Shown: piece after piece, positions 3,253 through 25,605 of the stretch
Layout: each line of letters opens with the position of its first letter
Position numbering within the stretch: position 1 is the stretch's first letter
Source of the DNA: Candidatus Cloacimonadota bacterium
Lineage (GTDB): Bacteria > Cloacimonadota > Cloacimonadia > JGIOTU-2
NCBI GenBank assembly: GCA_014384665.1
Contig: JACNFI010000095.1
Coordinates: forward strand, 1-28,254
Length of the DNA: 28,254 nt
Direction of reading: 5' to 3'
Translations under genes and position numbers: made by a program
Notes under the pieces: model-generated
Database searches by the model: none
What the model was told of the DNA's origin: nothing
What the model saw: only the letters and a program-made list of their open reading frames with translations

Positions 3253-3912
3253 TTACCATAGCTTTTTCTCTTTGCCATTCATTAACCTTTTTATATTCTC
3301 TTTATGACGAAAAATAATTAAAATCATAATAAAAGCTGTCAATATTAAAAAAGGAAGCTCGTCAAAATTTGGTATGTTTTTTATTAATTCTGTGCCGAAA
3401 AATGTTATTACTGCAATCATAGATGCAAGAGATACATATCTAAAAATAATTAGTATTATTACAAAAGGAATTAAAGCATAAATAACAGGAACAGGAATTA
3501 TGTTTATAAAAGCACCGGCTCCAGTCGCAACACCTTTACCACCTTTGAACTTTAAAAAAATAGGAAATATATGACCTAACACTACAGAAATTCCAACTAT
3601 AATAATCAAAATTTGAAAAGTTTGAGTTCCTTTAATATTATTAAAGACATTTAAAATTGAAATATTGAATATATTCGTTGGACTTTCAAGAATACAGCGT
3701 CCAATTTGAACTGCAAAAAATCCTTTTAAAAAATCAAAAATAAGAGAGATGATACCCGGAATTACACCAATTACTCTAAATACATTGGTTGCACCAATAT
3801 TTTTACTTCCATAATTCCTGATATCAATTTTTTTAAGTATTTTCCCAAGAATAAAACCACTCGGTATAGCACCAAGTAGATAAGCAATTATGATTGCAAT
3901 AATAAATTTCAA
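3253..3912 (-). CDS. plsY: glycerol-3-phosphate acyltransferase PlsY (acyl-phosphate dependent)
   Basis: The 219-aa polytopic membrane protein has the GSKNIGATNVFR motif characteristic of PlsY/YgiH. It overlaps der by 4 nt, a conserved der-plsY linkage. Confidence 0.85.
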   Translation of the reverse strand: MKFIIAIIIAYLLGAIPSGFILGKILKKIDIRNYGSKNIGATNVFRVIGVIPGIISLIFDFLKGFFAVQIGRCILESPTNIFNISILNVFNNIKGTQTFQILIIIVGISVVLGHIFPIFLKFKGGKGVATGAGAFINIIPVPVIYALIPFVIILIIFRYVSLASMIAVITFFGTELIKNIPNFDELPFLILTAFIMILIIFRHKENIKRLMNGKEKKLW

Positions 3913-5231
3913 TTTTTTCTTCCTTTATATTTAAATCTTAATGTAACACCTTCAAATTTATATATTTCTCTTATTTGGTTATGAATATATCGTTTATAAT
4001 TTTCAGTAATTAATTTTGGATTATTAACACTAAACACAAATGTTGGAGGATGAACATTTGCTTCTGTGCAATAATAAAATTTAACATTTTTTTTTGATGG
4101 ATGGTGAGGAGCATATTTCTGAAATACTGATTGAAAAAATTGATTTAGTTTGCTGGTTGGAATTCTTAAGTTACTTTGTTCTTCAACATATAATATAAGT
4201 TCCAGAAGTTTATTGACTCTTTTTCCTGTTAATGCAGAAATAAATATAATTGGAGCATAGTTAATGAATCCCATTTCTTCCCTGATTTTTTGAATATATT
4301 TACTGGTTGTATCATTCTCTTTTGCTATAAGGTCCCATTTATTCACCACAATAATAATATCCTTATATTGGGATTGTGTATATTCTACTATTCGTTTATC
4401 TTGTAAAGAAATTTCTTCTTGGGCATCAAGCAATACTAAAACTATATCTGATGAGTTTATGCTTCGTAAACTACGTAGATTACTAAAATATTCAATGCCA
4501 AATTTCACTTTGCTCTTTTTCCGAAGTCCTGCAGTATCAATTATTGTCATAGGTCTTTCTTTATAGTTAAAATTGAGGTGTATAGAATCTCGTGTGGTTC
4601 CTGGAATTTCAGTAACAATTACTGCATTTTGACCAATGATTTTATTAACTAATGAAGACTTTCCTACATTTTGTTTTCCAACAACTGCGATTTTTATTGA
4701 TTCTTTATTTAATATATCATATTCAGATTTACCTGGTGGAATTTTTTCAACTACATTATCTAACAATTCACCAAAATTTCTTCCACTAATTGCAGAGATT
4801 CCAATTGGCTCTCCAAGACCTAAATTCAAGAAATCAAATAAATATAACTCATCTTTTTGATTATCTACTTTGTTTAAAACGAAAATTACTTTATCAAGGA
4901 TGGGAAATAATTTCTTTGTAATTTGCTCATCTGTTGTAGTTATTACCGTTTTGCAATCAAGAACAAAAATAATAATATCTGCTTCTTGAATTGCTATTTC
5001 TACTTGCAACTGAATTAACTGTTCCATTTCATCAAATGAGTTTGGCACCATCCCACCAGTATCTACAGCTATAAATGAATAACCTGACCATTCAGTTTCT
5101 TGATATTTTCTGTCTCTCGTAACACCGGATTCTTTATCAACTATTGCAAGTCTTTTTCGCACCATACGATTAAAAATGGTGGACTTTCCTACATTAGGTC
5201 TTCCGATTATCGCGACTATTGGGATTGACAT
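3909..5231 (-). CDS. der: ribosome-biogenesis GTPase Der (EngA), tandem GTPase domains plus a C-terminal KH-like domain
   Basis: The 440-aa translation has two P-loops (GRPNVGKST and GKQNVGKSS), DTAG/DTGG G3 motifs and NKVD/NKWD G4 motifs. This is the classic double-GTPase architecture. Confidence 0.9.
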   Translation of the reverse strand: MSIPIVAIIGRPNVGKSTIFNRMVRKRLAIVDKESGVTRDRKYQETEWSGYSFIAVDTGGMVPNSFDEMEQLIQLQVEIAIQEADIIIFVLDCKTVITTTDEQITKKLFPILDKVIFVLNKVDNQKDELYLFDFLNLGLGEPIGISAISGRNFGELLDNVVEKIPPGKSEYDILNKESIKIAVVGKQNVGKSSLVNKIIGQNAVIVTEIPGTTRDSIHLNFNYKERPMTIIDTAGLRKKSKVKFGIEYFSNLRSLRSINSSDIVLVLLDAQEEISLQDKRIVEYTQSQYKDIIIVVNKWDLIAKENDTTSKYIQKIREEMGFINYAPIIFISALTGKRVNKLLELILYVEEQSNLRIPTSKLNQFFQSVFQKYAPHHPSKKNVKFYYCTEANVHPPTFVFSVNNPKLITENYKRYIHNQIREIYKFEGVTLRFKYKGRKN

Positions 5232-14840: not shown

Positions 14841-15740
14841 ATGGGTATAATAGTCATCATTATAATTCTGATTGTGCTATATTGGCAGGCAAAGAGTATT
14901 TTCCATGATAAAGCTAACCTGGCAAAAACTATTATTATTTTGCTAATTATAATTGGAGTTTTATCACAAACGATTAAAGTTGTAGAACCAGGTAAAGTAA
15001 AAGTGCAGGTGCTGTTCGGAAAGGTGCAAAAAAGGATTTTGCACAGCGGACTTAATTTTGTAAATCCGTTAATAACTATGCGTACTATGAGTGTTCGCAC
15101 AGAAGCTTATACAATGAGTGCTGCACGATATGAAGGTAGAGTCCGAGGCGACGATGCAATAAAAGCATTAACTTCTGATGGTATCATACTGCCTATGGAT
15201 ATTACATGCTTGTTTCATTTAATAGCTGATAAAGCACCAGAGGTATATGAAAAAATTGGCTATGATTATGAATCAAAGATTATCCGACCTGAACTCAAAA
15301 CGATTATCCGACAAGTTATTAGTAACTTTAAAATGGAGCAGGTATATTCTTCTGCAAGAGATACTATTGCTCTAAGAATGAAAGAAGAAGCTCATAAGAA
15401 ATTATTTCCAAGAGGAATATTTATTGAGGATGTTCTTTTAAGAAATGTTACTCTTCCAAAACAGGTAGAAACAGCAATAAATGCAAAAAAGACTGAGCAA
15501 CAAAATTTTGAAAAGATGCTCTATACGCTACAGAAAGAAGGAAAGGAAAAAGAGAGAAAGATTATCGAAGCAGAGGGTATCAAAATTGCCAATCAAACTA
15601 TTGCAGAAGGTCTAACAGAAAGTTATCTTAGATGGTATCAAATTGATATGATGAAAAAATTGATTGATAGCCCGAATAACACGATTATCTTTATTCCAAT
15701 GGGACAGGAGATTACACCGATAATTAATACAGGGAAATAA
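14841..15740 (+). CDS. SPFH/band-7 (stomatin/prohibitin-like) membrane protein
   Basis: The 299-aa translation has an N-terminal TM segment. The SPFH core (KVVEPGKVKVQVLFGKVQ…, IRPELKTIIRQVISNFKMEQVYSSARDTIALRMKEEAHKKL) and a C-terminal coiled-coil are typical of the family. An RBS (AGGAGGAAAAA) precedes the ATG. Confidence 0.8.
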   Translation: MGIIVIIIILIVLYWQAKSIFHDKANLAKTIIILLIIIGVLSQTIKVVEPGKVKVQVLFGKVQKRILHSGLNFVNPLITMRTMSVRTEAYTMSAARYEGRVRGDDAIKALTSDGIILPMDITCLFHLIADKAPEVYEKIGYDYESKIIRPELKTIIRQVISNFKMEQVYSSARDTIALRMKEEAHKKLFPRGIFIEDVLLRNVTLPKQVETAINAKKTEQQNFEKMLYTLQKEGKEKERKIIEAEGIKIANQTIAEGLTESYLRWYQIDMMKKLIDSPNNTIIFIPMGQEITPIINTGK

Positions 15741-15850
15741 GGAAATAGAGGTATAAGGGAAAAATCAAAAGGCAAAATGTAAAAGGCAAAATTAAAAGTT
15801 ATAGGGCAGAAATTTTTAATATATTGAAATTTTATTCTTTCCCTGTAAAT
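15632..15850 (+). repeat. direct repeat copy A: last 35 codons of the SPFH gene plus about 110 bp downstream; partner at 16637-16857
   Basis: 15632-15850 and 16637-16857 align end to end at roughly 85% identity. Copy B still encodes WYQIDMMKKLIDSPNNTIIFIPRGQDITPIINTGK*, against native …FIPMGQEITPIINTGK*. Confidence 0.8.
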
Positions 15851-15903
15851 TTATTGCATAGGAATTTCCTTTTTTTCTGACACATAAGTTTTTGGTAGAT
15901 AAC

Positions 15904-15927
15904 TCGTAACCCGTAACCCGTAACTCG
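15904..15927. repeat. tandem heptamer CGTAACC ×3 (TCGTAACCCGTAACCCGTAACTCG)
   Basis: Seen directly in the sequence, in the region carried in with the bioY insert. Confidence 0.6.
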
Positions 15928-15954
15928 AATAGCATTTTTTATCAGTGAATATCT

Positions 15955-16010
15955 GTGTTTACCCCGTGTAATATAAAACGCTTCACTATTACACGGGGTG
16001 AATCTGTGGC
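15955..16010 (+). promoter_or_regulatory. GC-rich hairpin GTGTTTACCCCGTGTAATAT-N13-TATTACACGGGGTGAATCTGTGGC, about 30 nt upstream of bioY; possible operator or hairpin-repeat family member
   Basis: It is a 12-bp perfect stem. The flanking ACGGGGTGAAnnnGTGGC motif recurs at 27249-27266 (reverse orientation) and 27436-27452. Confidence 0.4.
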
Positions 16011-16039
16011 TAATATTTTCTCGGCGGTGAAAGGAAAAA

Positions 16040-16636
16040 ATGGAAAATCTAAAAAGAATGAACACAATGGCTGAAGCTTGTTTTCCAAGAATTGGAATTT
16101 TGAGCAATCCGATAATTTATAACTTGCTATTGATTTTAGGTGGCAGTCTCTTTATCTCCTTGACCGCACAATTAGCATTTCGTTTGCCTTTTACTCCAGT
16201 GCCAATAACAATGCAGACATTTGGAGTGCTTTTAATTGGACTTACATATGGTAGCAAGAGAGGTGCTTTAACATTGGTTGCATACCTTGCAGAAGGAGCA
16301 ATGGGCTTACCAGTATTTGCGAATGGTGGGTGTGGAATTGCTTACCTTTGCGGTCCCACAGGTGGATATTTGTTTGGATTTGTAGTTGCAGCATTTGTTA
16401 TTGGATACTTGGCAGAAAATGGCTGGGATAGAAAAATGTTGACTGCATTTGCAGCAATGTTGATTGGCACAATTGTTCTATTTGCTTTTGGTTTGCTCGG
16501 GCTGAGCAGATTTGTTGGTGAAGATAAATTATTTGTCGCAGGATTGATTCCGTTCATTCCAGGTGAGATTTTTAAGAGCATTCTTGTGGCTATTTCATTG
16601 CCAACTGCATGGAAGGTTCTCATAAAAAAATTTTAA
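16040..16636 (+). CDS. bioY: biotin transporter BioY (ECF-type S component)
   Basis: The 198-aa polytopic protein has the BioY hallmark PVPITMQTFGVLLIGL and GPTGGYLFGF motifs. A strong RBS (AAAGGAAAAA) precedes the ATG. It is visibly more GC-rich than its neighbours and is flanked by the 15632/16637 direct repeats. Confidence 0.85.
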   Translation: MENLKRMNTMAEACFPRIGILSNPIIYNLLLILGGSLFISLTAQLAFRLPFTPVPITMQTFGVLLIGLTYGSKRGALTLVAYLAEGAMGLPVFANGGCGIAYLCGPTGGYLFGFVVAAFVIGYLAENGWDRKMLTAFAAMLIGTIVLFAFGLLGLSRFVGEDKLFVAGLIPFIPGEIFKSILVAISLPTAWKVLIKKF

Positions 16637-16857
16637 ATGGTACCAAATTGATATGATGAAAAAACTGATTGATAGTCCGAATAATACGATTATCTTTATC
16701 CCGAGGGGACAAGATATTACACCAATAATTAATACTGGAAAGTAGTATATAAAAGGAAATAAGGAGATAGGGATATAAGGATATAAGGCAAAATGTAAAA
16801 GGCAAAAAATTAAGAAGCAGAAATTATTAATATAGAGAAGATTTATTCTTTTACCCT
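16637..16857 (+). repeat. direct repeat copy B (diverged duplicate of the SPFH 3' end plus downstream spacer)
   Basis: See copy A. It includes the in-frame remnant of the 35 C-terminal SPFH codons with its own stop at about 16747-16749. Confidence 0.8.
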
Positions 16858-16880
16858 ATTAGATTTCAATTTGAGGTAGA

Positions 16881-18068
16881 ATGATAAATATGAAAAAGAA
16901 AAAAATTATATTCATTATTGTATTATTCTCTATGTTTTCTACATGCACTTTTTCTTATGCTTTATATGAATTTACTTGTATTTTTACTTTATACAACACT
17001 TCTGCAACCAATTTAGCTTTTGGACTTGATTCTGGTACAGCAAATATCTGGCACAAAAATCCCTTAGATATTTGGAGTAATCCAGCAAAACTTGGGTATT
17101 ATAAAGGATTTGCTTTTGGATACTCACATGATAAATGGTTTGATGATCTTAATTTGGACATTTATCACAACTCATCCTATTTAACATTTGGATGGAAGGG
17201 TTTAGGCATTTTACTGCCTTCTCTCAATAATTCAAGCAAATTTGGAACCACTATGGATTATGGTGAACAAGAAGTATATGATGCACATGGAAATCTTTTG
17301 AGGAAGTTTAATTCCTATGAGACCTGCAGTCAATTTGCTTTTGGAATTAATTGTCTTGAATTCATTAATTATTTTTCTAAAGAAAATCAATTATTCAATA
17401 ATCTGCGAAAATACTCGGAACTTTCATTAGGATTAAGTATTGATTATATACGAAGTAATCTGCTGCCTTATATTTCTGATTCCCTGAAAATAAATAAAGG
17501 AACTGGGTTATCAAATAATATTGGCGCACTAATAAAAATAACTCCTTTAAATATATATGATAGTGGTATAAGGCTTGATATTACTGCAGGCATAAATATA
17601 GTTAACATATTTAAATCAGACATGACTTATAAATACAATAATGGAGATAAGGAGAAACAACCATTGCCTTATGGTAATAGAACTGGAATCGCTGGAAAAT
17701 TATCATTTATAAATATTAAGAACCTCGCAGATGAATATCCTTTGCTTTTTGATATTTCTAAATATCTTTTATCAATCTATGCAAGTTATGATAATTCTAA
17801 ATATGGTGATAATCCTTCTATCTGGGGTAAAGGAATTGAATTAACTTTGCTTGATATATTTTCTTGGCGATTTGGAGAATGCACAGATAAATATGGACAG
17901 GAGATTGGAGATTGTGAAGGTTGGGGTATTAATCTCAATTACAAAAATATTGTTAGTTTTCAATATAATTATGTTGAGTTTCCTTTAGGAGAGTCGCAAA
18001 CTAAGCAAAAAAAAGAAGATATATCATTTGGTATAGATATAATTAAACTCATAAATGAGTTTAAATAA
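16881..18068 (+). CDS. hypothetical secreted / outer-membrane-like protein
   Basis: The 395-aa translation has an N-terminal signal-like segment (KKKKIIFIIVLFSMFSTCTFSYA). Alternating aromatic/glycine-rich beta-strand-like segments run through the protein. Its family is unknown. The true start may be the second ATG at 16890, which has better spacing to GAGGT. Confidence 0.6.
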   Translation: MINMKKKKIIFIIVLFSMFSTCTFSYALYEFTCIFTLYNTSATNLAFGLDSGTANIWHKNPLDIWSNPAKLGYYKGFAFGYSHDKWFDDLNLDIYHNSSYLTFGWKGLGILLPSLNNSSKFGTTMDYGEQEVYDAHGNLLRKFNSYETCSQFAFGINCLEFINYFSKENQLFNNLRKYSELSLGLSIDYIRSNLLPYISDSLKINKGTGLSNNIGALIKITPLNIYDSGIRLDITAGINIVNIFKSDMTYKYNNGDKEKQPLPYGNRTGIAGKLSFINIKNLADEYPLLFDISKYLLSIYASYDNSKYGDNPSIWGKGIELTLLDIFSWRFGECTDKYGQEIGDCEGWGINLNYKNIVSFQYNYVEFPLGESQTKQKKEDISFGIDIIKLINEFK

Positions 18069-18073
18069 AATCT
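18006..18073 (+). repeat. direct repeat copy A: last about 20 codons of gene 16881-18068 plus 5 nt downstream; partner at 18511-18577
   Basis: CAAAAAAAAGAAGATATATCATTTGGTATAGATATAATTAAACTCATAAATGAGTTTAAATAAAATCT matches CAAAAAAAGAATGATCTATCATTTATTATAGACATATTTAAATTCATAAATGAGTTAAAATAAAATCT. Copy B still reads …DLSFIIDIFKFINELK*, against native …DISFGIDIIKLINEFK*. Confidence 0.75.
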
Positions 18074-18153
18074 AAAGTTATTATAGTTTTTTATTTTCTA
18101 TGAAATATGCCATTTATATTTTTACATTAGAATTCTAATAAGTGAGATAAATT

Positions 18154-18456
18154 ATGAAAACAGTCTCAAAGAGTACCACCTTTAAGAATTTATTAAAAGA
18201 TTTGGCAATTACAGATGTGTCAAGGATAATAAGGGATACTTTGCTCACCGAAATTCTTTGCAAGATTTCAGATTTTTCTGATGAAGTAAAACATTTTGAG
18301 GAAAAATATGGCAAAAATCTAAGTGACTTCATTAAAGAATATGAATCTAATGATGAAGATTTTGAAAAATATGATGACCTGATGGCTTGGGAATTTGCTC
18401 AACAAGGAAAACAATATTGGGAAACAAAGCTAAAGGAAGCCAAGAGTGTTTTATAA
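18154..18456 (+). CDS. hypothetical 100-aa acidic cytoplasmic protein (cargo of the second tail-duplication cassette)
   Basis: An intact ORF lying between the two copies of the 18006/18511 repeat. It has no recognisable catalytic motif and is rich in charged residues (…DFSDEVKHFEEKYG…EDFEKYDDLMAWEFAQQGKQYW). It may be a small antitoxin-like or regulatory protein, but this is unverified. Confidence 0.45.
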   Translation: MKTVSKSTTFKNLLKDLAITDVSRIIRDTLLTEILCKISDFSDEVKHFEEKYGKNLSDFIKEYESNDEDFEKYDDLMAWEFAQQGKQYWETKLKEAKSVL

Positions 18457-18510
18457 AATAATTGAAGAGTACGCAAATATTATTCACAGATATTCTGTAA
18501 AAAACAAAAA

Positions 18511-18577
18511 CAAAAAAAGAATGATCTATCATTTATTATAGACATATTTAAATTCATAAATGAGTTAAAATAAAATC
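18511..18577 (+). repeat. direct repeat copy B (diverged duplicate of the 3' end of gene 16881-18068)
   Basis: See copy A at 18006-18073; identity is roughly 80%. Confidence 0.75.
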
Positions 18578-18617
18578 TCTGCGTTCTCTGCGTCTTCGCG
18601 GTGAGTGAAAGGAACAA

Positions 18618-19847
18618 GTGGGCAAAACTATAGTTGAAAAAATCATTCAATCACATTCAGATGAAAAAGTAAAAGCAGGCAAGATTGTCTGGATGAAGTT
18701 AGATATCAGAACTGCACGAGATTTCGGCGGTCCAAATGTAGTAAAAAATCTTGAGAAATACTATCCAGATGAACGATTACCAGATGTAGAAAATATACTT
18801 TTTACTTTTGATTGCGTTGTACCTGCAAAAACCATTCCTTATGCAAACAATCAGCAAATCTGCCGTGAATTTGCAAAAAAGCAAGGTATAAGAGTTTTTG
18901 ATGTTGATGCTGGAATTGGAACTCATATTTTAATGGAAAAAGGATTTGCACGACCGGGCAGAATTCTTGTAGGTACAGATAGTCATTTTAACATTCTAGG
19001 TGCTGTTGGAGCTTTCGGACAGGGGATGGGGGATCAGGATATTGCTTTTACTTTTTGCACAGGAAAAACCTGGTTTGAAGTACCAGAAACAATCAAAATC
19101 AATCTAAAAGGAAGATTTACTTTTCCTACAACTGGTAAAGATTTAGTTCTTTTCGTTTTGCGAAAATTAGGAAGTAAAGGTGCATTGGGGAAATGTATTG
19201 AATATTATGGAGAATGCCTTCAAGATTTGAGTTTCGCAGAATATATTACTCTATGCAGTATGATGACAGAGATGGGCGGTATCGTAGCTTTTCCTTATCC
19301 AAATGAAAATGTAACAAATTGGCTTATTAAAAGAACAGGAGAAAATCCAGAATTTATTTTTGCTGATAGAGATGCAAAATATTGCAATGAAATTGAAATT
19401 GATGTTACTGATTTACAACCGCAAATTGCCTGTCCGCCAAAACCAGATAATGTTAAAGAGGTTTCAAGGTTAAAATGTTTGAAGGTTAATTCAGTTTTTG
19501 TTGGCTCTTGCACAAATGGTAGATTTGAAGATATGCTGCAAGTCTCTGAAATCCTGAAAGGAAACAAGGTTGCACAAGGAGTTATGTTGAGAATTGTTCC
19601 TGCAACAAAAGAAGTTTATGGTCAAATGCTTAAAGAAGGATTAATCCAGGTTCTCTATGATGCAGGTGCAATTATTTCAAACCCAGGATGTGGTGGATGT
19701 GCATCTGGTCAAATTGGTATGACTGGCAAAAGAGAAGTGCAGATTTCAACTGCTAATCGCAATTTTTTAGGAAAACAGGGAGACGGAGATACCTATCTTG
19801 CCAGTCCTGTTACTGCAGCTTTTGCAGCCCTAAAGGGAAAATTGTAG
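18618..19847 (+). CDS. leuC: 3-isopropylmalate dehydratase / homoaconitase-type large subunit (short aconitase-family LeuC)
   Basis: The 409-aa translation has a GTG start after AAAGGAACAA. It has aconitase-family motifs, including the cysteine ligands of VGSCTNGR and GCGGCASGQ. Its short size fits the archaeal-type LeuC/HACN. Confidence 0.85.
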   Translation: MGKTIVEKIIQSHSDEKVKAGKIVWMKLDIRTARDFGGPNVVKNLEKYYPDERLPDVENILFTFDCVVPAKTIPYANNQQICREFAKKQGIRVFDVDAGIGTHILMEKGFARPGRILVGTDSHFNILGAVGAFGQGMGDQDIAFTFCTGKTWFEVPETIKINLKGRFTFPTTGKDLVLFVLRKLGSKGALGKCIEYYGECLQDLSFAEYITLCSMMTEMGGIVAFPYPNENVTNWLIKRTGENPEFIFADRDAKYCNEIEIDVTDLQPQIACPPKPDNVKEVSRLKCLKVNSVFVGSCTNGRFEDMLQVSEILKGNKVAQGVMLRIVPATKEVYGQMLKEGLIQVLYDAGAIISNPGCGGCASGQIGMTGKREVQISTANRNFLGKQGDGDTYLASPVTAAFAALKGKL

Positions 19848-19848
19848 A

Positions 19849-21060
19849 ATGAAAAATAAAACTTTTTTTTCAATCATCATTTTAGTATCTTCAATCTTTA
19901 TTATACTTTCTGGATGCACAAAAAAACAATTAGAAGAAGTCCATGAGTTCATTAACATTGCCGGAAAGATAAGAAAAGGTGAATCACTGTTTTCTACCTT
20001 ACTTGAAAAAAATGTTGATAGGAAAGAAGCATTCAAAATCACAAAATCTCTTAATAAATATTTTGACCTCAGATATACTCACCCAAACGATAGTTTTGCA
20101 ATACAAATTGATACTTTGGGACAGGTTCAGAGATTGGAATATTTCCCGAATAAAATTGAAAAATATATCGTAATCCGAGACACATTAGACGATTTCATCA
20201 CGCATAAAAAGGAAGTTGAATTATCAAAAGAAATTTTTGTCTTGTCTTCTCAGATTCAATCATCAATTTATCAATCAATGGTAAATCAGGGAGTTAGTCC
20301 AGAATTGGTAATGAATTTCAGTGATATTTTTCAGTGGGATATTGATTTTTTTATAGACCCAAGAGAAGGAGATAGTTGCAAACTTGTTTATGAAGCATTT
20401 ACCAACAATGGCAAAATTCTGAAATATGGCGATATTCTTGCAGCGTCATATAAAGGAAAAAATTTTGACCTTACTGCTTACTACTTTTTTGATGACGGCA
20501 AGAATGCAAACGGATATTTTGATAAAGATGGCATATCATTTCAGAAAGCATTTCTTAAATCCCCATTAAATTATTCATATATCAGTTCATACTTTTCTTA
20601 TGCACGATACCATCCAATTTTGAAAAAGGTCTGTCCTCATTATGGAATTGATTATGCTGCTCCTTATGGAACTCCAATTGTTGCTTCAGCTGATGGAAAA
20701 GTTGTTTTCAAAGGTTGGAATAATGGCTTTGGTCATTGTATAAAAATCAGACATAAAAATAGCAGATATGTTACTTTATATGGACATTTAAGTGGATATG
20801 CTCGTGGAATTTATGTGGGCGCAAATGTCAAACAGAAACAACTGATTGGATATGTGGGTTCAACTGGCTGGTCAACAGGTCCTCATCTTGATTACAGAAT
20901 CTATGATAATGGACGAGCAATTAATCCACTGAAATTGAAGAATGTATCAGGTCCCCCAATTCCGAAAAAAATAAAAAAAGATTTCATGAAAATTGTATTA
21001 GCAATGAATGAAATGTTGGAGAATGATATTTTAGAAAATAAAAAAAATCAAAAAAATTGA
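19849..21060 (+). CDS. M23 family metallopeptidase lipoprotein (murein DD-endopeptidase-like)
   Basis: The 403-aa translation has a lipoprotein signal peptide ending ILSGC. The C-terminal LytM/M23 domain carries HYGIDYAAPYGTPIVA…GHLSGY…GSTGWSTGPHLDYRI (HxxxD and HxH zinc motifs). Its start is 1 nt after the leuC stop. Confidence 0.85.
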   Translation: MKNKTFFSIIILVSSIFIILSGCTKKQLEEVHEFINIAGKIRKGESLFSTLLEKNVDRKEAFKITKSLNKYFDLRYTHPNDSFAIQIDTLGQVQRLEYFPNKIEKYIVIRDTLDDFITHKKEVELSKEIFVLSSQIQSSIYQSMVNQGVSPELVMNFSDIFQWDIDFFIDPREGDSCKLVYEAFTNNGKILKYGDILAASYKGKNFDLTAYYFFDDGKNANGYFDKDGISFQKAFLKSPLNYSYISSYFSYARYHPILKKVCPHYGIDYAAPYGTPIVASADGKVVFKGWNNGFGHCIKIRHKNSRYVTLYGHLSGYARGIYVGANVKQKQLIGYVGSTGWSTGPHLDYRIYDNGRAINPLKLKNVSGPPIPKKIKKDFMKIVLAMNEMLENDILENKKNQKN

Positions 21061-21093
21061 CACAGAAATAATCGTCGCTTCATTTTATCCCCA

Positions 21094-21600
21094 ATGCAGA
21101 AAAATATGAAACTAAACGGCAAAATATGGTTGATTACTAACAATAATAATCTCATAAACGATATTGACACAGATATGATTTTCCACAATAGATATTTAGC
21201 AATCACAGATATAAATCAGATGGGACAATATGCATTTGATAATCTTAATGGATGGAAAGATTTTGCAAAGGAAAGTGAGAAAGGTGATATCATCATTGCT
21301 GGGAAAAATTTTGGTTCTGGTTCATCCAGACAGCAAGCAGTTGATTGCTTTATCTCGCTTGGAATTCAAGCAATTTTGGCTGAATCTTTTGGTGCTATCT
21401 ACAAACGAAATGCAATAAATTCAGGATTACCAATCTTACAAATTAAAAAAATAAATTTACAAAAATTTAATCAACGAGAAAAAATTGTAATTAATTTAGT
21501 TGATGGCTCAACTAATTCGGAATATTTAGAAATAGAGCCTTTTTCAAAGGTTCAGCTGGATATTTATCAATCAGGAAATTTATTCTCCTATGGAAAGTAA
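21094..21600 (+). CDS. leuD: 3-isopropylmalate dehydratase small subunit (aconitase swivel domain, LeuD-like)
   Basis: The 168-aa translation has the GKNFGSGSSRQQA…AESFGAIYKRNAIN motifs typical of LeuD. An alternative start at 21106 (MKLNGKIW…) is possible. Confidence 0.85.
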   Translation: MQKNMKLNGKIWLITNNNNLINDIDTDMIFHNRYLAITDINQMGQYAFDNLNGWKDFAKESEKGDIIIAGKNFGSGSSRQQAVDCFISLGIQAILAESFGAIYKRNAINSGLPILQIKKINLQKFNQREKIVINLVDGSTNSEYLEIEPFSKVQLDIYQSGNLFSYGK

Positions 21601-21659
21601 CGCAATTGTCTCAATTGCGACACAAACCCCCGATTTCTCGGGGGGGACGATTGTGTTAC
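21596..21659 (+). repeat. composite hairpin H1 directly after the leuD stop: GTAAC-[CGCAATTG tct CAATTGCG]-[ACACAA a CCCCCGA tttc TCGGGGG ggacga TTGTGT]-TAC
   Basis: Seen directly in the sequence. The same structure recurs at 21992-22040, but there it lacks the inner CCCCCGA…TCGGGGG mini-hairpin. It could act as a terminator or recombination site, or it may be a nested hairpin insertion. Confidence 0.65.
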
Positions 21660-21662
21660 AAA

Positions 21663-21716
21663 ATTCTATTTGATATTCATCAAGCAGGAAATTTGTTCAC
21701 TTATGGATGAAAGAAT
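21663..21716 (+). repeat. degenerate duplicate of the leuD 3' tail (encodes FDIHQAGNLFTYG*, against native LDIYQSGNLFSYGK*)
   Basis: It aligns to 21556-21600 at roughly 75% identity. A second, more degenerate copy lies at 22041-22078. Confidence 0.65.
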
Positions 21717-21738
21717 TTTTTAAAGGAGGTTTTTAGAA

Positions 21739-21969
21739 ATGTTAAATACAGTTAGAGGTATATATGAAAATGGGGTAATAAAACCTTTTGAAAAAGTAAG
21801 AGATAAAGAAAGGTCAGAGGGCATAATTATCTTTTTAGATACTGCCAAAGAGAAGAAATCAGCTTTCTTTTCCTCGGCCGGCTCATGGAAAGATGTAGAT
21901 ACCGAGGTCTTGAAAAAACAAATATACGAAAGCAGAAAAATTTCTAATAGAAGAAAAATTCAGCTATGA
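21739..21969 (+). CDS. DUF104 (AF2212-like) family putative antitoxin, orphan
   Basis: The 76-aa translation starts MLNTVRGIYENGVIKPFEKV…EGIIIF, matching the conserved N-terminus of the DUF104 antitoxin-like family that is usually paired with PIN/VapC toxins. The RBS is AAAGGAGG. No adjacent PIN-domain ORF is present. Confidence 0.5.
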   Translation: MLNTVRGIYENGVIKPFEKVRDKERSEGIIIFLDTAKEKKSAFFSSAGSWKDVDTEVLKKQIYESRKISNRRKIQL

Positions 21970-21978
21970 TTTCATTCC

Positions 21979-22078
21979 TTCTCCTATGGAAAGTAACGCA
22001 ATTGTCTCAATTGCGACACAATCGGAGACGATTGTGTTACAAAATCCAGATGATTTATCAGGCAGGAAATTTGTTTAA
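21979..22078 (+). repeat. second copy of the cassette-boundary module: leuD tail fragment (TTCTCCTATGGAAAGTAA), hairpin H3 (21992-22040), then a degenerate tail
   Basis: TTCTCCTATGGAAAGTAACGCAATTGTCTCAATTGCGACACAA is identical to 21580-21622. H3 is the simple form …ACACAATCG gaga CGATTGTGT TAC. The following 22041-22078 parallels 21660-21716. An ATG of a cargo gene follows each module. Confidence 0.7.
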
Positions 22079-22080
22079 AT

Positions 22081-22418
22081 TTGGGAAAATATAGTATGAT
22101 TAGTAAAGAGCAGATTCATGAAATTGTACAAACTATTGTAAAAGGCTACAATCCAAAGAAAATAATCCTTTTTGGTTCGTATGTTAGTGGAAATCCTTCT
22201 GAAGATAGTGACTTAGACATGTTTCTTGTGAAAGAGAGCAAACTTCCAAGATATAAACGAGCAAGGCAGGTTCATAAATTATTTGACCCCTTGTGCGATG
22301 GATATAATCGTGTACAACACAAATGAAATAAAAAAATGGAAAGATGTCAGAAATTCTTTTGTATACGATGTTCTAAAAAATGGGAAAGTGTTATATGAAC
22401 AAACTGGTTGAAGAGTGG
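22081..22418 (+). pseudogene. mntA: MNT-type (minimal) nucleotidyltransferase antitoxin gene, interrupted by a +1 frameshift
   Basis: The N-terminal 81 aa contain the nucleotidyltransferase motif ILFGSYVSGNPSEDSDLDMFLV (GS…DxD). The frame then ends at 22326. Reading +1 from the CCCC run at about 22288 gives …PCAMDIIVYNTNEIKKWKDVRNSFVYDVLKNGKVLYEQTG*, the canonical MNT C-terminus. The shift sits in a C4 homopolymer, so this is a genuine frameshift or a sequencing error. Confidence 0.65.
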
Positions 22419-22776
22419 ATTCATAAAGCAGAAAATGATTTTTTAGATGCAGAAAATAATTTGAAAAGTCAGCAGATACCTACTGATACAGTCTGTTTTC
22501 ACTGCCAACAAGTAGCAGAAAAATATCTGAAAGCTTACTTGATTTCAAGAAACAAATCCTTTCCCCAAATTCATAATCTCATTCATCTGATGTAATTATG
22601 TAGAGAACTGGACCCAATTTTTTTGAAGTTAAAAGATGAACTAATAATTCTAAATGACTATGCAGTAGAAATTCGCTATCCTGACGACTGGTTGTGAACC
22701 AACCATTGAAGAAGCCAATGAAGCATTGGAATTAGCAAGAAAAGTAAAAGATTTTATATCTATAAAAATAAAATAG
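22380..22776 (+). pseudogene. hepT: HEPN-domain toxin gene (HepT-like), interrupted by two frame changes
   Basis: The first 71 aa (…AENDFLDAENNLKS…CFHCQQVAEKYLKAYLISRN…IHNLIHLM*) form the HEPN N-terminal helices. Downstream in other frames the reading continues ELCRELDPIFLKLKDELIILNDYAVEIRYPDDW (the Rx4-6H-like RYPDD HEPN motif), then EPTIEEANEALELARKVKDFISIKIK*. The start overlaps the end of the MNT gene, as in mntA-hepT pairs. Confidence 0.6.
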
Positions 22777-22797
22777 CATTTTGAAAGGAGCAAAAAA

Positions 22798-25605
22798 GTG
22801 AAAATTTGTATAAAACTCTTTTTTCTACTTACAATCCTATCACTCTCCTTTTCAGGTAATCTAATTGCTAAGCTACTACCTAATGATGAACCTGTAACAG
22901 AGCTTAAAGCAGAAGATGTGCCAAATGATGATGGAGGTGGATTAATCATAAGTTGGAAACCTCTTCACAAGGATAAGAAAATTATTGAATATCGTATTTA
23001 TCGTGGTGTAACACCTGATACTCTGTTTTATATTGGTAAGATACCGGTAAATGTAAAAACAGGTGTTATCGGTGATACAATGAGATTTACTGATCAAAGC
23101 TGGGTATTGTTTGTTGATGCCACTTCTCCTGCTGAATTGAGAAGAGAGAAAGGGCAAAGAAAAGGTGAGATAGGTTATGATGTTTTATATCGTAAAGTTC
23201 CAAGAGATATGAAGGTCTATGGACCTTTATTGAAAGAGTATAGAATTCTATGTGTAATTCCTTTAAAACAATATTTATACAAAACAAAGATGAAGGAATT
23301 TACTGAAATTGACACAACCAAAGAAGGTAAAGTGGATACCACCTCAACTACTTTAGCTGGTTTAAAGCTACGACAATTTAAATATCTTCTAACTAAACAG
23401 ATTATCGGGAAAAATTATTATTATGCTGTGCAAGCAGTAAACCTAAATAGAAGGACTTCTCCACTATCTGAAATTGTGGCAGGTGTAACTACAAATGACC
23501 CACCAGAAAAGTTGAAAGAGTTTTACGCAGTTGCATATTTAGATACAGAGGAGATGCGCTTTGAATGGTCACTACCTACTTTTGCTGAAGACCAGAAACA
23601 ATTCAATATTTATCTTTATGATGAAAATGGTGAAAAACATAGAATATTTACCCGTGCTGATGCTTACCCATATACACCACAAACAAATGCAATTGTTACA
23701 TTTGATTCAATTAAAGTTAGATTTCCTGAATTTAATTCAACAAATATGAAATGGTATAGATTCAATATTGGGGAACAGGATAGGGCTAATCAGGAAACAC
23801 TTGCAAAAGATGAACCAATCCCAGCTGAAATAGTTGAGAATTCTATGGATGTTTTACCACCTGTTCCTCAATATTTCACTGTGGAAGATAATCCCAATGA
23901 TAAAGGTGATCAAATCAAAATATTCTTTGATAAACCCTATTTTGGTATTTCTAAATTGACTTATAATAACGATTTTACAAAATTATTTGTAAGTTACTTT
24001 ATTAGAGATAATGAATTATTTAAGGTTTACAGAATTACAATTCAGATAAATGGAACAAAACAAACTGAGTATGTACTTGATGATAAAGCAAAATTCAAAG
24101 TTGATTGGGATTACCAAGAGCCAATGACAATTTCTGCTACATTTCAGTGCAGAAACAAAGCTAAAAGATTATATAAAGATGTGACATTACCTGAAGATTA
24201 TTCTGTATCTCATACATTTTATTATGATGAAGAAAGGTCATTAGTTGAATTGGTCCCAACTGAATCAAAAAATTATAGTTTTCAAATATATAAACATAAC
24301 AAATCTAGTGATGTATATCGCTTTCCAAAACTTTTATCTTATATGGAAAGAGAATATCTTGATAGAATTAGATATGAGGAAGTTGAATTTCGCGGTAATC
24401 CAAAATATTGTTTAGATGACAATCGGCTTTATGTTTCAACTTATTTAAGTATTGAAAATTGGGAAGAACAAGAACCATATTATACAATGGCAATTTACCT
24501 TGAGCAATTAGAGAAAATGAATAAGGAAATGAAAGATGAAATTGATAAATTACAGAAAGAATTAGAAGAAACGAGCGATAAGGATAAAGTTGATAGTTTG
24601 AAAACATTAATTAAGAATTATACGAATTTAATTGAAGATAAACCTCCGATTGTTGAACTTGCAAACGAGCAAACAACTAATAGAGATAGAATGAAAATTT
24701 TAGACAAACGACATTGTGAGAGTAAGCGAACTTTTAAATATTTTATAAGAAAGACTGATGGGAAAGGGCATTTTGTTGATACAAAGGTTTATACTAAAAA
24801 GGATGGTGACCAGTATTTCTTCCCTCAGTCAAATTGGTTTAATAAAAACGAAATTATTACTCTCATTGCTGTTTTGATTTTTGGAGCATTAGTATATTTT
24901 ATGATTAGGGCAGCTAAAAAGGGTAAGAAGCTATACATAAGACCTATTGCAGGTATTCAAGAAATAGATACTGCAATAGGCCGTGCCACAGAAATGGGCA
25001 GGCCAATTCTATTCGTGCCAGGGATAAGTGGAATTAGAGATGTTGCAACTTTAGCGGGACTGGCAATTTTAGCTAAGGTAGCCAAAAAAGCTGCAGAGTA
25101 TGATACAAAAATTCTTGTTCCTATAAGAGATTATATAGTTCTTCCAATTGCTCAGGAGATTGTAAAAGAAGCCCATTACGAAGCAGGGCGTCCAGATACT
25201 TATGACAAAAATAGTGTATTCTTTATTTCCATTGAACAGTTTGCTTTTGTGTCTGGGGTTAACGGAATTATGATAAGAGAAAAAACAGCAACGAACTTCT
25301 ATATGGGAATGTTCTATGCAGAATCACTTCTTTTGACAGAAACTGGAAGTATGACAGGTGCTATACAAATCGCTGGCACAGATGCTATTACCCAGCTTCC
25401 ATTCTTTATTACAACTTGTGACTATACATTAATGGGAGAAGAACTTTATGCTGCAAGTGCCTATCTGTCCAAACAACCACTAATACTTGGAACTTTGAAA
25501 GCTCAGGATTATGTAAAACTTTTGATAGTAATTGCCGTAGTGTTTGGAACCCTTCTTTCAACAATTCATTTAACATTTTTTATGAACTGGTTTCCAACTA
25601 AATAG
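22798..25605 (+). CDS. large surface protein (935 aa): signal peptide, FN3-like repeats, a large unassigned ectodomain, a TM helix, an about 200-aa conserved-looking C-terminal domain and a terminal TM helix
   Basis: GTG start after AAAGGAGCAAAAAA. The signal peptide is KLFFLLTILSLSFSG. FN3-like hallmarks are IEYRIYRGVTPDT and KNYYYAVQAVNLN. A TM helix is predicted around IITLIAVLIFGALVYFMI. The C-terminal region (…RPIAGIQEIDTAIGRATEMGRPILFVPGISGIRDVATLAGLAILAKV…) is followed by a final hydrophobic helix. No family is recognised. Confidence 0.75.
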   Translation: MKICIKLFFLLTILSLSFSGNLIAKLLPNDEPVTELKAEDVPNDDGGGLIISWKPLHKDKKIIEYRIYRGVTPDTLFYIGKIPVNVKTGVIGDTMRFTDQSWVLFVDATSPAELRREKGQRKGEIGYDVLYRKVPRDMKVYGPLLKEYRILCVIPLKQYLYKTKMKEFTEIDTTKEGKVDTTSTTLAGLKLRQFKYLLTKQIIGKNYYYAVQAVNLNRRTSPLSEIVAGVTTNDPPEKLKEFYAVAYLDTEEMRFEWSLPTFAEDQKQFNIYLYDENGEKHRIFTRADAYPYTPQTNAIVTFDSIKVRFPEFNSTNMKWYRFNIGEQDRANQETLAKDEPIPAEIVENSMDVLPPVPQYFTVEDNPNDKGDQIKIFFDKPYFGISKLTYNNDFTKLFVSYFIRDNELFKVYRITIQINGTKQTEYVLDDKAKFKVDWDYQEPMTISATFQCRNKAKRLYKDVTLPEDYSVSHTFYYDEERSLVELVPTESKNYSFQIYKHNKSSDVYRFPKLLSYMEREYLDRIRYEEVEFRGNPKYCLDDNRLYVSTYLSIENWEEQEPYYTMAIYLEQLEKMNKEMKDEIDKLQKELEETSDKDKVDSLKTLIKNYTNLIEDKPPIVELANEQTTNRDRMKILDKRHCESKRTFKYFIRKTDGKGHFVDTKVYTKKDGDQYFFPQSNWFNKNEIITLIAVLIFGALVYFMIRAAKKGKKLYIRPIAGIQEIDTAIGRATEMGRPILFVPGISGIRDVATLAGLAILAKVAKKAAEYDTKILVPIRDYIVLPIAQEIVKEAHYEAGRPDTYDKNSVFFISIEQFAFVSGVNGIMIREKTATNFYMGMFYAESLLLTETGSMTGAIQIAGTDAITQLPFFITTCDYTLMGEELYAASAYLSKQPLILGTLKAQDYVKLLIVIAVVFGTLLSTIHLTFFMNWFPTK

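Follow-up and report, generated by a model that had tools for sequence, protein, structure and literature searches.

Addiction modules have been found inserted with target duplications of 46-420 bp, some of which overlap the 3' ends of genes, and no mobility genes accompany them (PMC2853133). Such insertion with long target duplication has been described for restriction-modification gene units, and its mechanism is unknown (PMC2853133, Furuta et al. 2010). Here we analyze a stretch of 28,254 nt from a Candidatus Cloacimonadota bacterium (contig JACNFI010000095.1; the window, meaning the whole of this stretch), in which the 3' end of leuD is followed by displaced spare leuD ends, by two copies of a 48-63-nt element made of two hairpins, and by the remains of toxin-antitoxin genes. 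The leuD locus is an insertion hotspot at which gene ends are preserved and a small palindrome lies at the joints, and it is more structured than a local duplication. On comparing it with the systems known to us, insertion with long target duplication appears to be the closest match.

Arrangement and ancestry of the leuD 3' end

All features of the locus lie on the forward strand. The leuD gene (21094-21600) encodes the 3-isopropylmalate dehydratase small subunit and matches Pfam Aconitase_C. The functional tail in present use, T0 (21553-21600), ends with a TAA stop that is provided by the opening bases of the hairpin element (G-TAA-C), the first copy of which covers 21597-21659 (63 nt, GTAAC to GTTAC). 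This copy is followed by an AAAAT joint and a second leuD tail, T1 (21660-21710, with T1 itself at 21669-21710), by a DUF104/AF2212-like antitoxin gene (21739-21969; Pfam PF01954), and by the stump of a PIN/VapC toxin gene (21966-21978). A second copy of the final 18 nt of T0 comes next (21979-21996; TTCTCCTATGGAAAGTAA), within an exact 43-nt repeat, and leads into the second copy of the element (21993-22040), which has the basic form of 48 nt. Another AAAAT joint and a third tail, T3 (22041-22095, with T3 itself at 22047-22094), then abut the start codon of an MNT nucleotidyltransferase pseudogene (22096-22411; Pfam NTP_transf_2/Polbeta, residues 1-76), which is accompanied by a HEPN pseudogene (22380-22776; Pfam HEPN, first 71 aa). 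The tails translate, each up to a stop codon, as LDIYQSGNLFSYGK (T0), FDIHQAGNLFTYG (T1), and QMIYQAGNLFKFGKI (T3).

An initial annotation of this stretch, made from its letters alone, had described a repeated module with an exact 43-nt match, and a repeat finder confirmed it. The segments 21578-21625 and 21974-22021 are 96% identical, and the exact repeat blocks measure 43 nt (21583-21625 = 21979-22021) and then 19 nt (21646-21664 = 22027-22045). The Pfam matches likewise agree with the earlier calls of a DUF104 (AF2212-like) gene and of a downstream MNT (NTP_transf_2) and HEPN pair. No recombinase was found among the 19 open reading frames (ORFs) of the window in a Pfam scan, nor do the matching contigs have one among their annotated genes, as had been said of integrases and recombinases in the window before.

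The arrangement is real and is not an assembly artefact, as five other assembled contigs agree with it. Four of them have an identical arrangement, one belonging to the NCBI metagenome-assembled genome (MAG) GCA_016783705.1 and three to ENA assemblies of different samples, and each spans both modules without a break (coverage 41x to 189x). A fifth contig (Logan) covers the part from the DUF104 gene through the second module, T3, and MNT/HEPN into the DUF6754 gene, and L088 spans DUF104, hairpin H3, and T3 as far as MNT. Strain variants concatenated by the assembler could be suspected from the Logan contigs that break at the repeat (L005 ends inside hairpin A, and L088 starts at the DUF104 start). 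Set against the agreement between assemblies, that explanation is hardly credible.

Thirty-three related leuD loci, taken from collections of genomes and metagenomes, served for comparison and are referred to by L numbers. The gene order MCM - SPFH - (PorV-like) - leuC - M23 - leuD - DUF6754 is conserved in the relatives. In about 20 Cloacimonadota loci the site is empty, with the DUF6754 gene following leuD after only 30-82 nt. Six loci (L014, L017, L103-105, and L108) possess an intact MNT/HEPN pair with a start codon that overlaps the leuD stop, and none of the six contains a hairpin module or a displaced tail. In L006 and L100, a T3-type functional leuD tail is followed by an internally deleted MNT/HEPN remnant, and the junction to MNT seen in the window (ATATAGTATGATTAGTAAA) is also found in L006. 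Because MNT/HEPN overlaps leuD in relatives without any module, and because L006 has a T3-type tail, these comparisons show T3 and MNT/HEPN to be the ancestral leuD end and not a captured cassette. The earlier claim that the module stands before each of two cargo genes fails on this point. In the window, MNT is frameshifted near 22283-22326, with the remainder of the gene in another frame, and it is intact in L014 and L017. HEPN is interrupted by a TAA stop (22593-22595) and, farther on, by a frameshift; its homologues in L017 and L108 are intact. These defects are identical in every contig that spans them. Overall, the comparison of the region downstream of leuD, which had been proposed as a check, revealed both empty sites and alternative cargos, and supports a hotspot of serial insertion.

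The three tails differ in their affinities. T3 has a clear best match in the functional tail of L006 (40/45 nt identical), whereas T0 is the tail least similar to that of L006 (30/45 nt); T0 and T3 are identical at 33/45 nt. The 3' half of leuD is nearest to L006 up to T0, and by sliding identity the final 90 nt drop to 76%. No donor tract is present upstream of T0, since leuD remains 84-88% identical to L006 as far as the T0 start. Because T0 is the least like L006 although the adjoining gene body is most like L006, we identify T3 as the tail cognate to the leuD body and T0 as a foreign replacement. Farther upstream, leuD is a mosaic in which the 5' third is nearest to L017 (87-91%) and the 3' half nearest to L006 (84-88%). 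This mosaicism indicates homologous exchange between Cloacimonadota lineages within the gene.

T1 is the leuD tail of yet another lineage, which arrived with the DUF104 cassette. Its terminal bases (TATGGATGAA) blend into the upstream sequence of the cassette itself, and the distant cassettes of L091 and L092 carry matching upstream sequence (TCTATGGTGAA and TCTATGATGAAA, respectively). Both displaced tails start at one position, directly after the ...GTGTTACAAAAT that ends the element, and this end is similar to the leuD sequence at the start of the displaced tails (TTTCAAAAGT). A "second tail" had also been placed before hairpin H3. The 18 nt at 21979-21996 are indeed leuD sequence; the preceding 13 nt (21966-21978) are the start of the PIN toxin gene. 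The segment 21960-21978 was rejected as a degenerate leuD tail, as it comprises the end of DUF104 and the start of PIN.

Homologues of the DUF104 protein are rare, only six being found in a large protein collection. In 5/5 contexts examined, an overlapping toxin gene follows, which encodes a PIN protein of 133 aa in three and is cut short in L092 and L093; the L089 PIN protein matches the VapC family. In the window, the VapBC-like layout of an antitoxin gene with an overlapping PIN gene is incomplete, the toxin gene being reduced to its first 13 nt (ATGATTTCATTCC). These align with the PIN start of L089 (ATGATTTCATACC) and are fused to the final 18 nt of T0 at a short similarity (ATTTCATTCCT versus ATTTATTCTCCT). 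The DUF104 gene, which had been taken for an intact free cassette, is thus the orphan antitoxin half of a VapBC-type pair with the toxin cut off.

L089 and L090 carry DUF104-PIN at the same leuD site, in the order leuD, left half of the element, DUF104-PIN, and decayed leuD tail. At 96% identity in leuD, they belong to the same species group as L013. Between the window and L089, the cassette is 89.5% identical at the nucleotide level and leuD 78%, and the cassette has therefore moved laterally. In unrelated organisms, the DUF104-PIN cassette family is found between direct repeats of 35-53 nt (60-100 and 880-916 in L091; 1598-1650 and 2163-2215 in L092). The right-hand repeat in L092 and L093 cuts the PIN gene after about 45 codons, a parallel to the antitoxin and toxin stump between repeats in the window.

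The leuD genes of L013/L007 and of L089 are 95-96% identical, yet their 3' ends differ, and the leuD 3' site is hypervariable. L013 and L007 show a partial tail duplication without the element (GGGAATTTATTCTATTATGGA joined to GAATTTGTTTGAGTTTGAAATGTAG), which may have arisen from a T0-element-old-tail state by secondary loss of the element via the short repeat GGAAA. In addition, the spacer between leuD and the DUF6754 gene contains structured repeats of 100-170 nt in L013 (6530-6700), L089 (1265-1420), and L106 (850-1010), with arms that include GACACAAAGACACAAAG / CTTCGTGTCTTCGTG and GTGTCAAGTCAAGC / GCTTGACTTGACA. Several MAG contigs stop just past leuD. One contig, which encodes a LeuD variant of 97% identity, breaks off at the stop codon, and a contig with an L007-type LeuD ends about 64 nt past leuD.

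A two-hairpin element in two species

The element measures 48-63 nt and is composed of two similar hairpins between the ends GTAAC and GTTAC. The basic form (21993-22040) reads GTAAC-GCAATTG-TCT-CAATTGC-G-ACACAATCG-GAGA-CGATTGTGT-TAC. Hairpin A is the palindrome CGCAATTG-TCT-CAATTGCG, located at 21601-21619 and 21997-22015. The perfect palindrome that had been noted before both cargo genes occurs twice, against 0.01 chance matches expected, and 0/100 shuffles reach 4. Copy 1 differs from copy 2 by an additional G+C-rich stem-loop within hairpin B. When the modules were folded, as had been suggested, both proved stable far beyond shuffled sequences, with z-scores of -6.4 and -7.0 as RNA and of -5.6 to -8.5 as DNA.

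The outer 16 nt of both ends are also able to pair, which yields one long stem, and both folds are predicted. This outer stem is continuous over 16 bp and contains two G-T wobble pairs and zero bulged bases. Across the three full copies known, one stem pair covaries (T-A / C-G / T-G) and the two G-T wobbles are kept; together, these features weakly favor the long-stem form and a strand asymmetry. In both species that carry the full element, the upstream reading frame stops at the TAA of the terminal GTAAC. A search of 15500-23000 against Rfam returned nothing relevant. In a terminator scan, the plus strand had no terminator where the hairpins lie, and terminator-like matches were confined to the minus strand.

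Further copies, the search for which had also been proposed by the initial annotation, were sought with a pattern in all fetched loci. One more full copy was found at 3382-3429 of L007, in another Cloacimonadota species, on the opposite strand and 94% identical to copy 2; it lies at a duplicated leuC head, and half copies are present in L089 and L090. The L007 element is situated just upstream of leuC in an insert of 133 nt, which consists of a 51-nt copy of the leuC head (MGKTIIEKIIQSHSDEM followed by a stop codon), the element, and 33 nt of foreign-type leuC leader, and the resident leuC start comes next. The whole insert is missing from the sister genome L013. L007 and L013 are about 90-92% identical on both sides of the insert, with no donor tract. 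The count of full copies thus stands at two in the 28-kb window, both at one locus, and one in about 230 kb of other Cloacimonadota loci.

Relation to described systems and possible mechanisms

Insertion with long target duplication, with which the name of Nobusato et al., 2000, is reportedly connected, resembles the present case in several respects. One genome has a small addiction-type unit that a relative lacks, no mobility gene is carried, and direct repeats of more than 30 bp align to a single-copy target and often overlap a gene 3' end. Genomes with the corresponding empty site were recovered for the L007 insert (in L013, which lacks the 133 nt and the duplicated leuC head) and for the BioY and ORF100 insertions of the window described below (in L017); no empty-site genome was found for the 396-bp unit around DUF104. 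As to whether the repeats duplicate a resident target, the near-identical repeat of 66-84 nt around DUF104 fits, whereas the SPFH tails at BioY and the pair T0/T3 do not. The present locus further differs in that one repeat copy is a foreign allele and in that a palindromic element lies at the joints in two species.

Integrative elements at gene 3' ends carry a gene end with their attP, as do the islands at tRNA and protein genes, which often form tandem arrays. Here too the incoming copy restores the gene, the old end is displaced to the far side, and newer insertions are nearest the gene. However, the units in question are only 113-400 bp long and lack an integrase, the element also occurs at a 5' gene end, and three genes are affected within 7 kb. 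Repeated integration at one att site, which had been suggested for the leuD end, is not sustained, as a single integrase explains neither the leuC 5' end nor the element-free duplications at BioY and ORF100.

The module had also been likened to the attC sites that bound integron cassettes. There is some resemblance, since a folded imperfect palindrome bounds a small gene unit without a recognizable promoter, the ends read ...TAAC and GTTA..., and toxin-antitoxin genes are common integron cargo. However, the 5' end (AAGTAAC) fails two of the three Y positions of the attC inverse core RYYYAAC, and the 3' end (GTTACAA) fails one R position and the Y position of the core GTTRRRY. The continuous 16-bp stem without bulges offers neither extrahelical bases nor an unpaired central spacer. 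An array is lacking, as the two copies bracket one gene fragment and the ancestral MNT/HEPN pair has no site of its own; there is no recombinase in 28 kb, with neither IntI nor attI here, and integron cassettes do not carry host gene tails. On these grounds an attC-like cassette boundary is dismissed. A literature search for integrons in Cloacimonadota returned nothing relevant.

The anatomy of the element corresponds to that of a REPIN, with GTAAC before CGCAATTG-TCT-CAATTGCG on the top strand and GTAAC before ACAATCG-TCTC-CGATTGT on the bottom strand. As in REPINs, two short imperfect palindromes are inverted with the same pentanucleotide before each, the whole folds as a long hairpin, and the position is outside functional coding sequence, by gene ends. 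REPINs are mobilized by RAYT or IS200/IS605-type Y1 transposases; REPs number tens to hundreds of extragenic copies per genome, and the cognate RAYT gene is usually flanked by them. In the window and the loci fetched, the copy number of the element is very low and no RAYT or TnpA gene was seen. We know of no REPINs flanked by gene-end duplications of 50-80 nt.

Homology-facilitated illegitimate recombination during natural transformation, reportedly the subject of work by de Vries and Wackernagel in 2002 and by Prudhomme et al. in 2002, is similar in that foreign DNA is added beside a homologous stretch and is joined on the other side through a few bases of microhomology. It differs in that the anchor gene here has no extended donor tract and recipient sequence is kept, not deleted. 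A donor tract with an anchor of about 100 nt or more is seen neither at T0 (84-88% to L006) nor in L007/L013 (about 90% on both sides). Because donor tracts are absent, the ordinary form of this process is disfavored.

A common architecture is found at leuD (twice), at the leuC head of L007, and at the BioY (15616-16851) and ORF100 (18003-18578) insertions: a gene, a foreign new end, new DNA, and the old end in its native context. Therefore, incoming DNA carries its own gene end, which is placed in register with the resident end. For the leuD 3' end, we propose nested lateral insertions in which each incoming unit, made up of "gene end + element (+ cargo)", is integrated in register with the resident counterpart of its gene end, an account to which we give roughly an even chance of being right. 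We infer the following order of events and manner of joining. The starting state would have been leuD with tail T3 and a stop abutting the start of the MNT/HEPN toxin-antitoxin pair, as in relatives. A first insertion would have brought the foreign T0 and the 48-nt two-hairpin element exactly to the T3 start, such that the leuD frame was kept, the element provided the TAA, and T3 was shifted downstream. A second would have placed the VapBC-type fragment (T1, DUF104, and 13 nt of PIN) between two copies of the element, so that it came to be flanked by direct copies of "final 18 nt of T0 + element" spaced 396 bp apart. The whole stack could have come about through successive arrivals of T0 + element, of T1 + DUF104 + toxin stump, and of T0 + element again, or through a single addition and then an insertion of 396 bp in which "T0 end + element" became duplicated. 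The element itself would be a low-copy, laterally spreading palindrome akin to a repetitive extragenic palindromic (REP) doublet or a miniature inverted-repeat transposable element (MITE), traveling with the spare end of the adjoining gene. The other joint would form at the hairpin foot through the short similarity TTACAAAAT / TTTCAAAAGT, with an outcome that resembles insertion with long target duplication, and the enzymes might be encoded elsewhere or be general host functions.

Several observations weigh against this account. Only three full copies of the element are known, two of them at the leuD locus. Among 178 fetched loci, the element is confined to the window species and L007, with a half copy in L089/L090; the 23-mer TAAYGCAATTGTCTCAATTGCGA had no match in JGI metagenome contigs, the full-element pattern had none in IMG/VR, and the translations of the element in every open frame matched nothing in a protein search. 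(Two IMG/VR matches to the 18-mer of hairpin A were judged to be chance, as they lie in unrelated coding or other contexts.) The intermediate leuD-T0-element-T3 is present in no genome seen, and when LeuD, DUF104, and the MNT fragment were looked up as exact proteins, the same arrangement alone was recovered, with no polymorphism in the window species. No enzyme for the insertion was identified, and none is encoded in the window. The similarity at the joint is short (about 8/10 nt). The missing donor tract by T0 and in L007 argues against ordinary long-anchor homology-facilitated illegitimate recombination and fits a site-specific cut-and-paste at least as well. Moreover, tail duplication at BioY and ORF100 happens without the element, and the association between element and duplication could be partly coincidental.

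Because donor tracts are absent, the main rival is a dedicated, site-specific and possibly single-strand mechanism, in which the element would be the site of a recombinase encoded elsewhere (IntI, Xer-type, or Y1/HUH of the IS200/IS605 or RAYT kind), and the 113-nt, 133-nt, and 396-bp units would be small circles that integrate by a CAAAA(G)T-like motif. It would account for discrete in-register inserts without a flanking donor tract, for units that all end a few bases past the hairpin foot, and for displaced tails that all begin at the same position. The two similar hairpins, each after GTAAC on its own strand, and the strand-asymmetric stem with conserved G-T pairs also suit it; for units as small as 113-133 nt, circles of single-stranded DNA are the more plausible form, and the cassette with its element looks circularly permuted between L089 and the window. 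However, the 28 kb are devoid of a recombinase, the attC consensus boxes fail on direct reading of the sequence, and the targets are the leuD 3' end and the leuC 5' end in opposite orientations. There is no array, copies are very few, and the BioY and ORF100 tails were duplicated with no element at all. We consider this mechanism unlikely. A bolder form of mobility, which we rate slightly lower still, is that the element is a new, "self-patching" kind of non-autonomous mobile element that moves as tiny circles, probably single-stranded, together with the spare end of the adjoining gene.

It is also conceivable that nothing mobile is involved and that the hairpins are merely the leuD terminator or a structure that stabilizes its mRNA. 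The module copies are identical except for one indel in the loop of hairpin B, microhomology is present at both joints (ATTTCATTCCT versus ATTTATTCTCCT, and TTACAAAAT versus TTTCAAAAGT), and native leuD in L012 and L106 is trailed by hairpins of its own. That idea is difficult to reconcile with the foreign origin of T0, with the lack of a U/T tract after the hairpins on the leuD strand, and with the 94%-identical 48-nt element that sits inverted at another gene, in a species with leuD only about 78% identical, within an insert absent from the sister; it is improbable. No better placed is the view that the palindromes are the DUF104-PIN operator/promoter, bound by the antitoxin, and that they show where cassettes used to be but have no role in recombination. 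Operators of type II toxin-antitoxin modules typically contain two neighboring palindromes of similar sequence, hairpin A of L089/L090 lies about 38 nt upstream of the DUF104 start, and the element is found on both sides of DUF104 in the window. However, the more distant DUF104-PIN cassettes (L091-L093) lack the element, L007 has a complete element with no toxin-antitoxin gene nearby, T1 intervenes between element and DUF104 with no convincing sigma-70-type promoter found there, and the gene-end duplications are left unexplained.

On the preferred reading of nested insertions, the locus documents a way in which an uncultured phylum gains small genes downstream of housekeeping genes, by means of DNA that brings its own gene end. 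The palindrome tied to joints in two species offers a handle on insertion with long target duplication, for which a mechanism has been lacking since 2000. For annotation, stacked degenerate tails downstream of a gene record past insertions and are not to be read as integron cassettes. If the element is self-patching, it could enter a new host at the homologous gene and leave that gene intact, and with each further landing more cargo, such as toxin-antitoxin genes, would accumulate behind housekeeping genes. Promoterless genes would by this natural route become linked to a folded recombination site, which would bear on the unsolved origin of integron-type cassettes.

Upstream tail duplications and minor observations

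Two further tail duplications had been noted upstream in a 7-kb zone with leuD. Both are real, and all three cargo insertions of the window are lineage-specific with duplicated tails of the upstream gene. Two copies of the SPFH tail with its intergenic region, at 15616-15840 and 16621-16851, enclose BioY (16040-16636). Between the two SPFH tails there are differences at 12 synonymous nucleotide positions and at 3 positions in amino-acid-changing codons, and because the differences are mostly synonymous, both copies must have evolved as working coding sequence in separate lineages. The downstream SPFH copy and intergenic region resemble L017, and this copy is therefore the ancestral one. Similarly, ORF100, a 100-aa frame (18154-18456) without a Pfam or NCBIfam match, is enclosed by two PorV/PorQ-like tail copies (18003-18073 and 18508-18578), of which the downstream copy is in its native context upstream of leuC, as in L017. 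Both cases have the form new tail, cargo, and old tail, and the element is absent from both. The idea that tail duplication is common in the clade or near leuD was rejected, as a self-comparison of all loci gave three such cases in the window alone; the matches elsewhere were mostly paralogous aconitase-family genes.

The BioY frame ends within the displaced SPFH tail (16590-16640), and its last 12 or so codons (CCAACTGCATGGAAGGTTCTCATAAAAAAATTTTAA) align to SPFH in another register; the BioY C terminus appears to be a fusion formed at the insertion joint. After ORF100, an overlapping short frame at 18457-18510 (IIEEYANIIHRYSVKNKNKK...) enters the displaced PorV-like tail, and ORF100 may be an antitoxin-like gene with a truncated partner, mirroring DUF104 and its PIN stump. 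The new DNA upstream of BioY includes a heptamer run, TCGTAAC CCGTAAC CCGTAAC TCG (15900-15930), which bears the end motif of the element, and then a hairpin with a 12-bp stem at 15964-16000 (CCCCGTGTAATA...TATTACACGGGG). A leader-like sequence, TTTTTATCAGTGAATATC(T/A/G)GTGTT...GGTGGCT, is common to the region upstream of BioY (15934-15965) and to the regions upstream of leuC in L007 (3283-3330) and L013 (about 3410-3450), and leuC has a related ...CTGYGGTGAG motif ahead of it in the window as well as in L017 and L007. The shared sequence could be a common promoter or leader, or could belong to another repeat family.

Palindromic and repeated sequences are present elsewhere in the relatives. 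Relative to L017 and L108, the conserved HEPN codons for YPDDW are interrupted by a short palindromic insertion (CCGCCAGCTGGCGG) in L014 (at about 7130), L103, and L104. A direct repeat in L014 and L104 was rejected as a related case, being a non-coding tandem array between leuC and the M23 peptidase gene. In L014 this spacer (4040-4680; also in L104) is built of units of about 280 nt, and the array holds fragments that resemble a small four-helix-bundle gene of the 23S intervening-sequence type.

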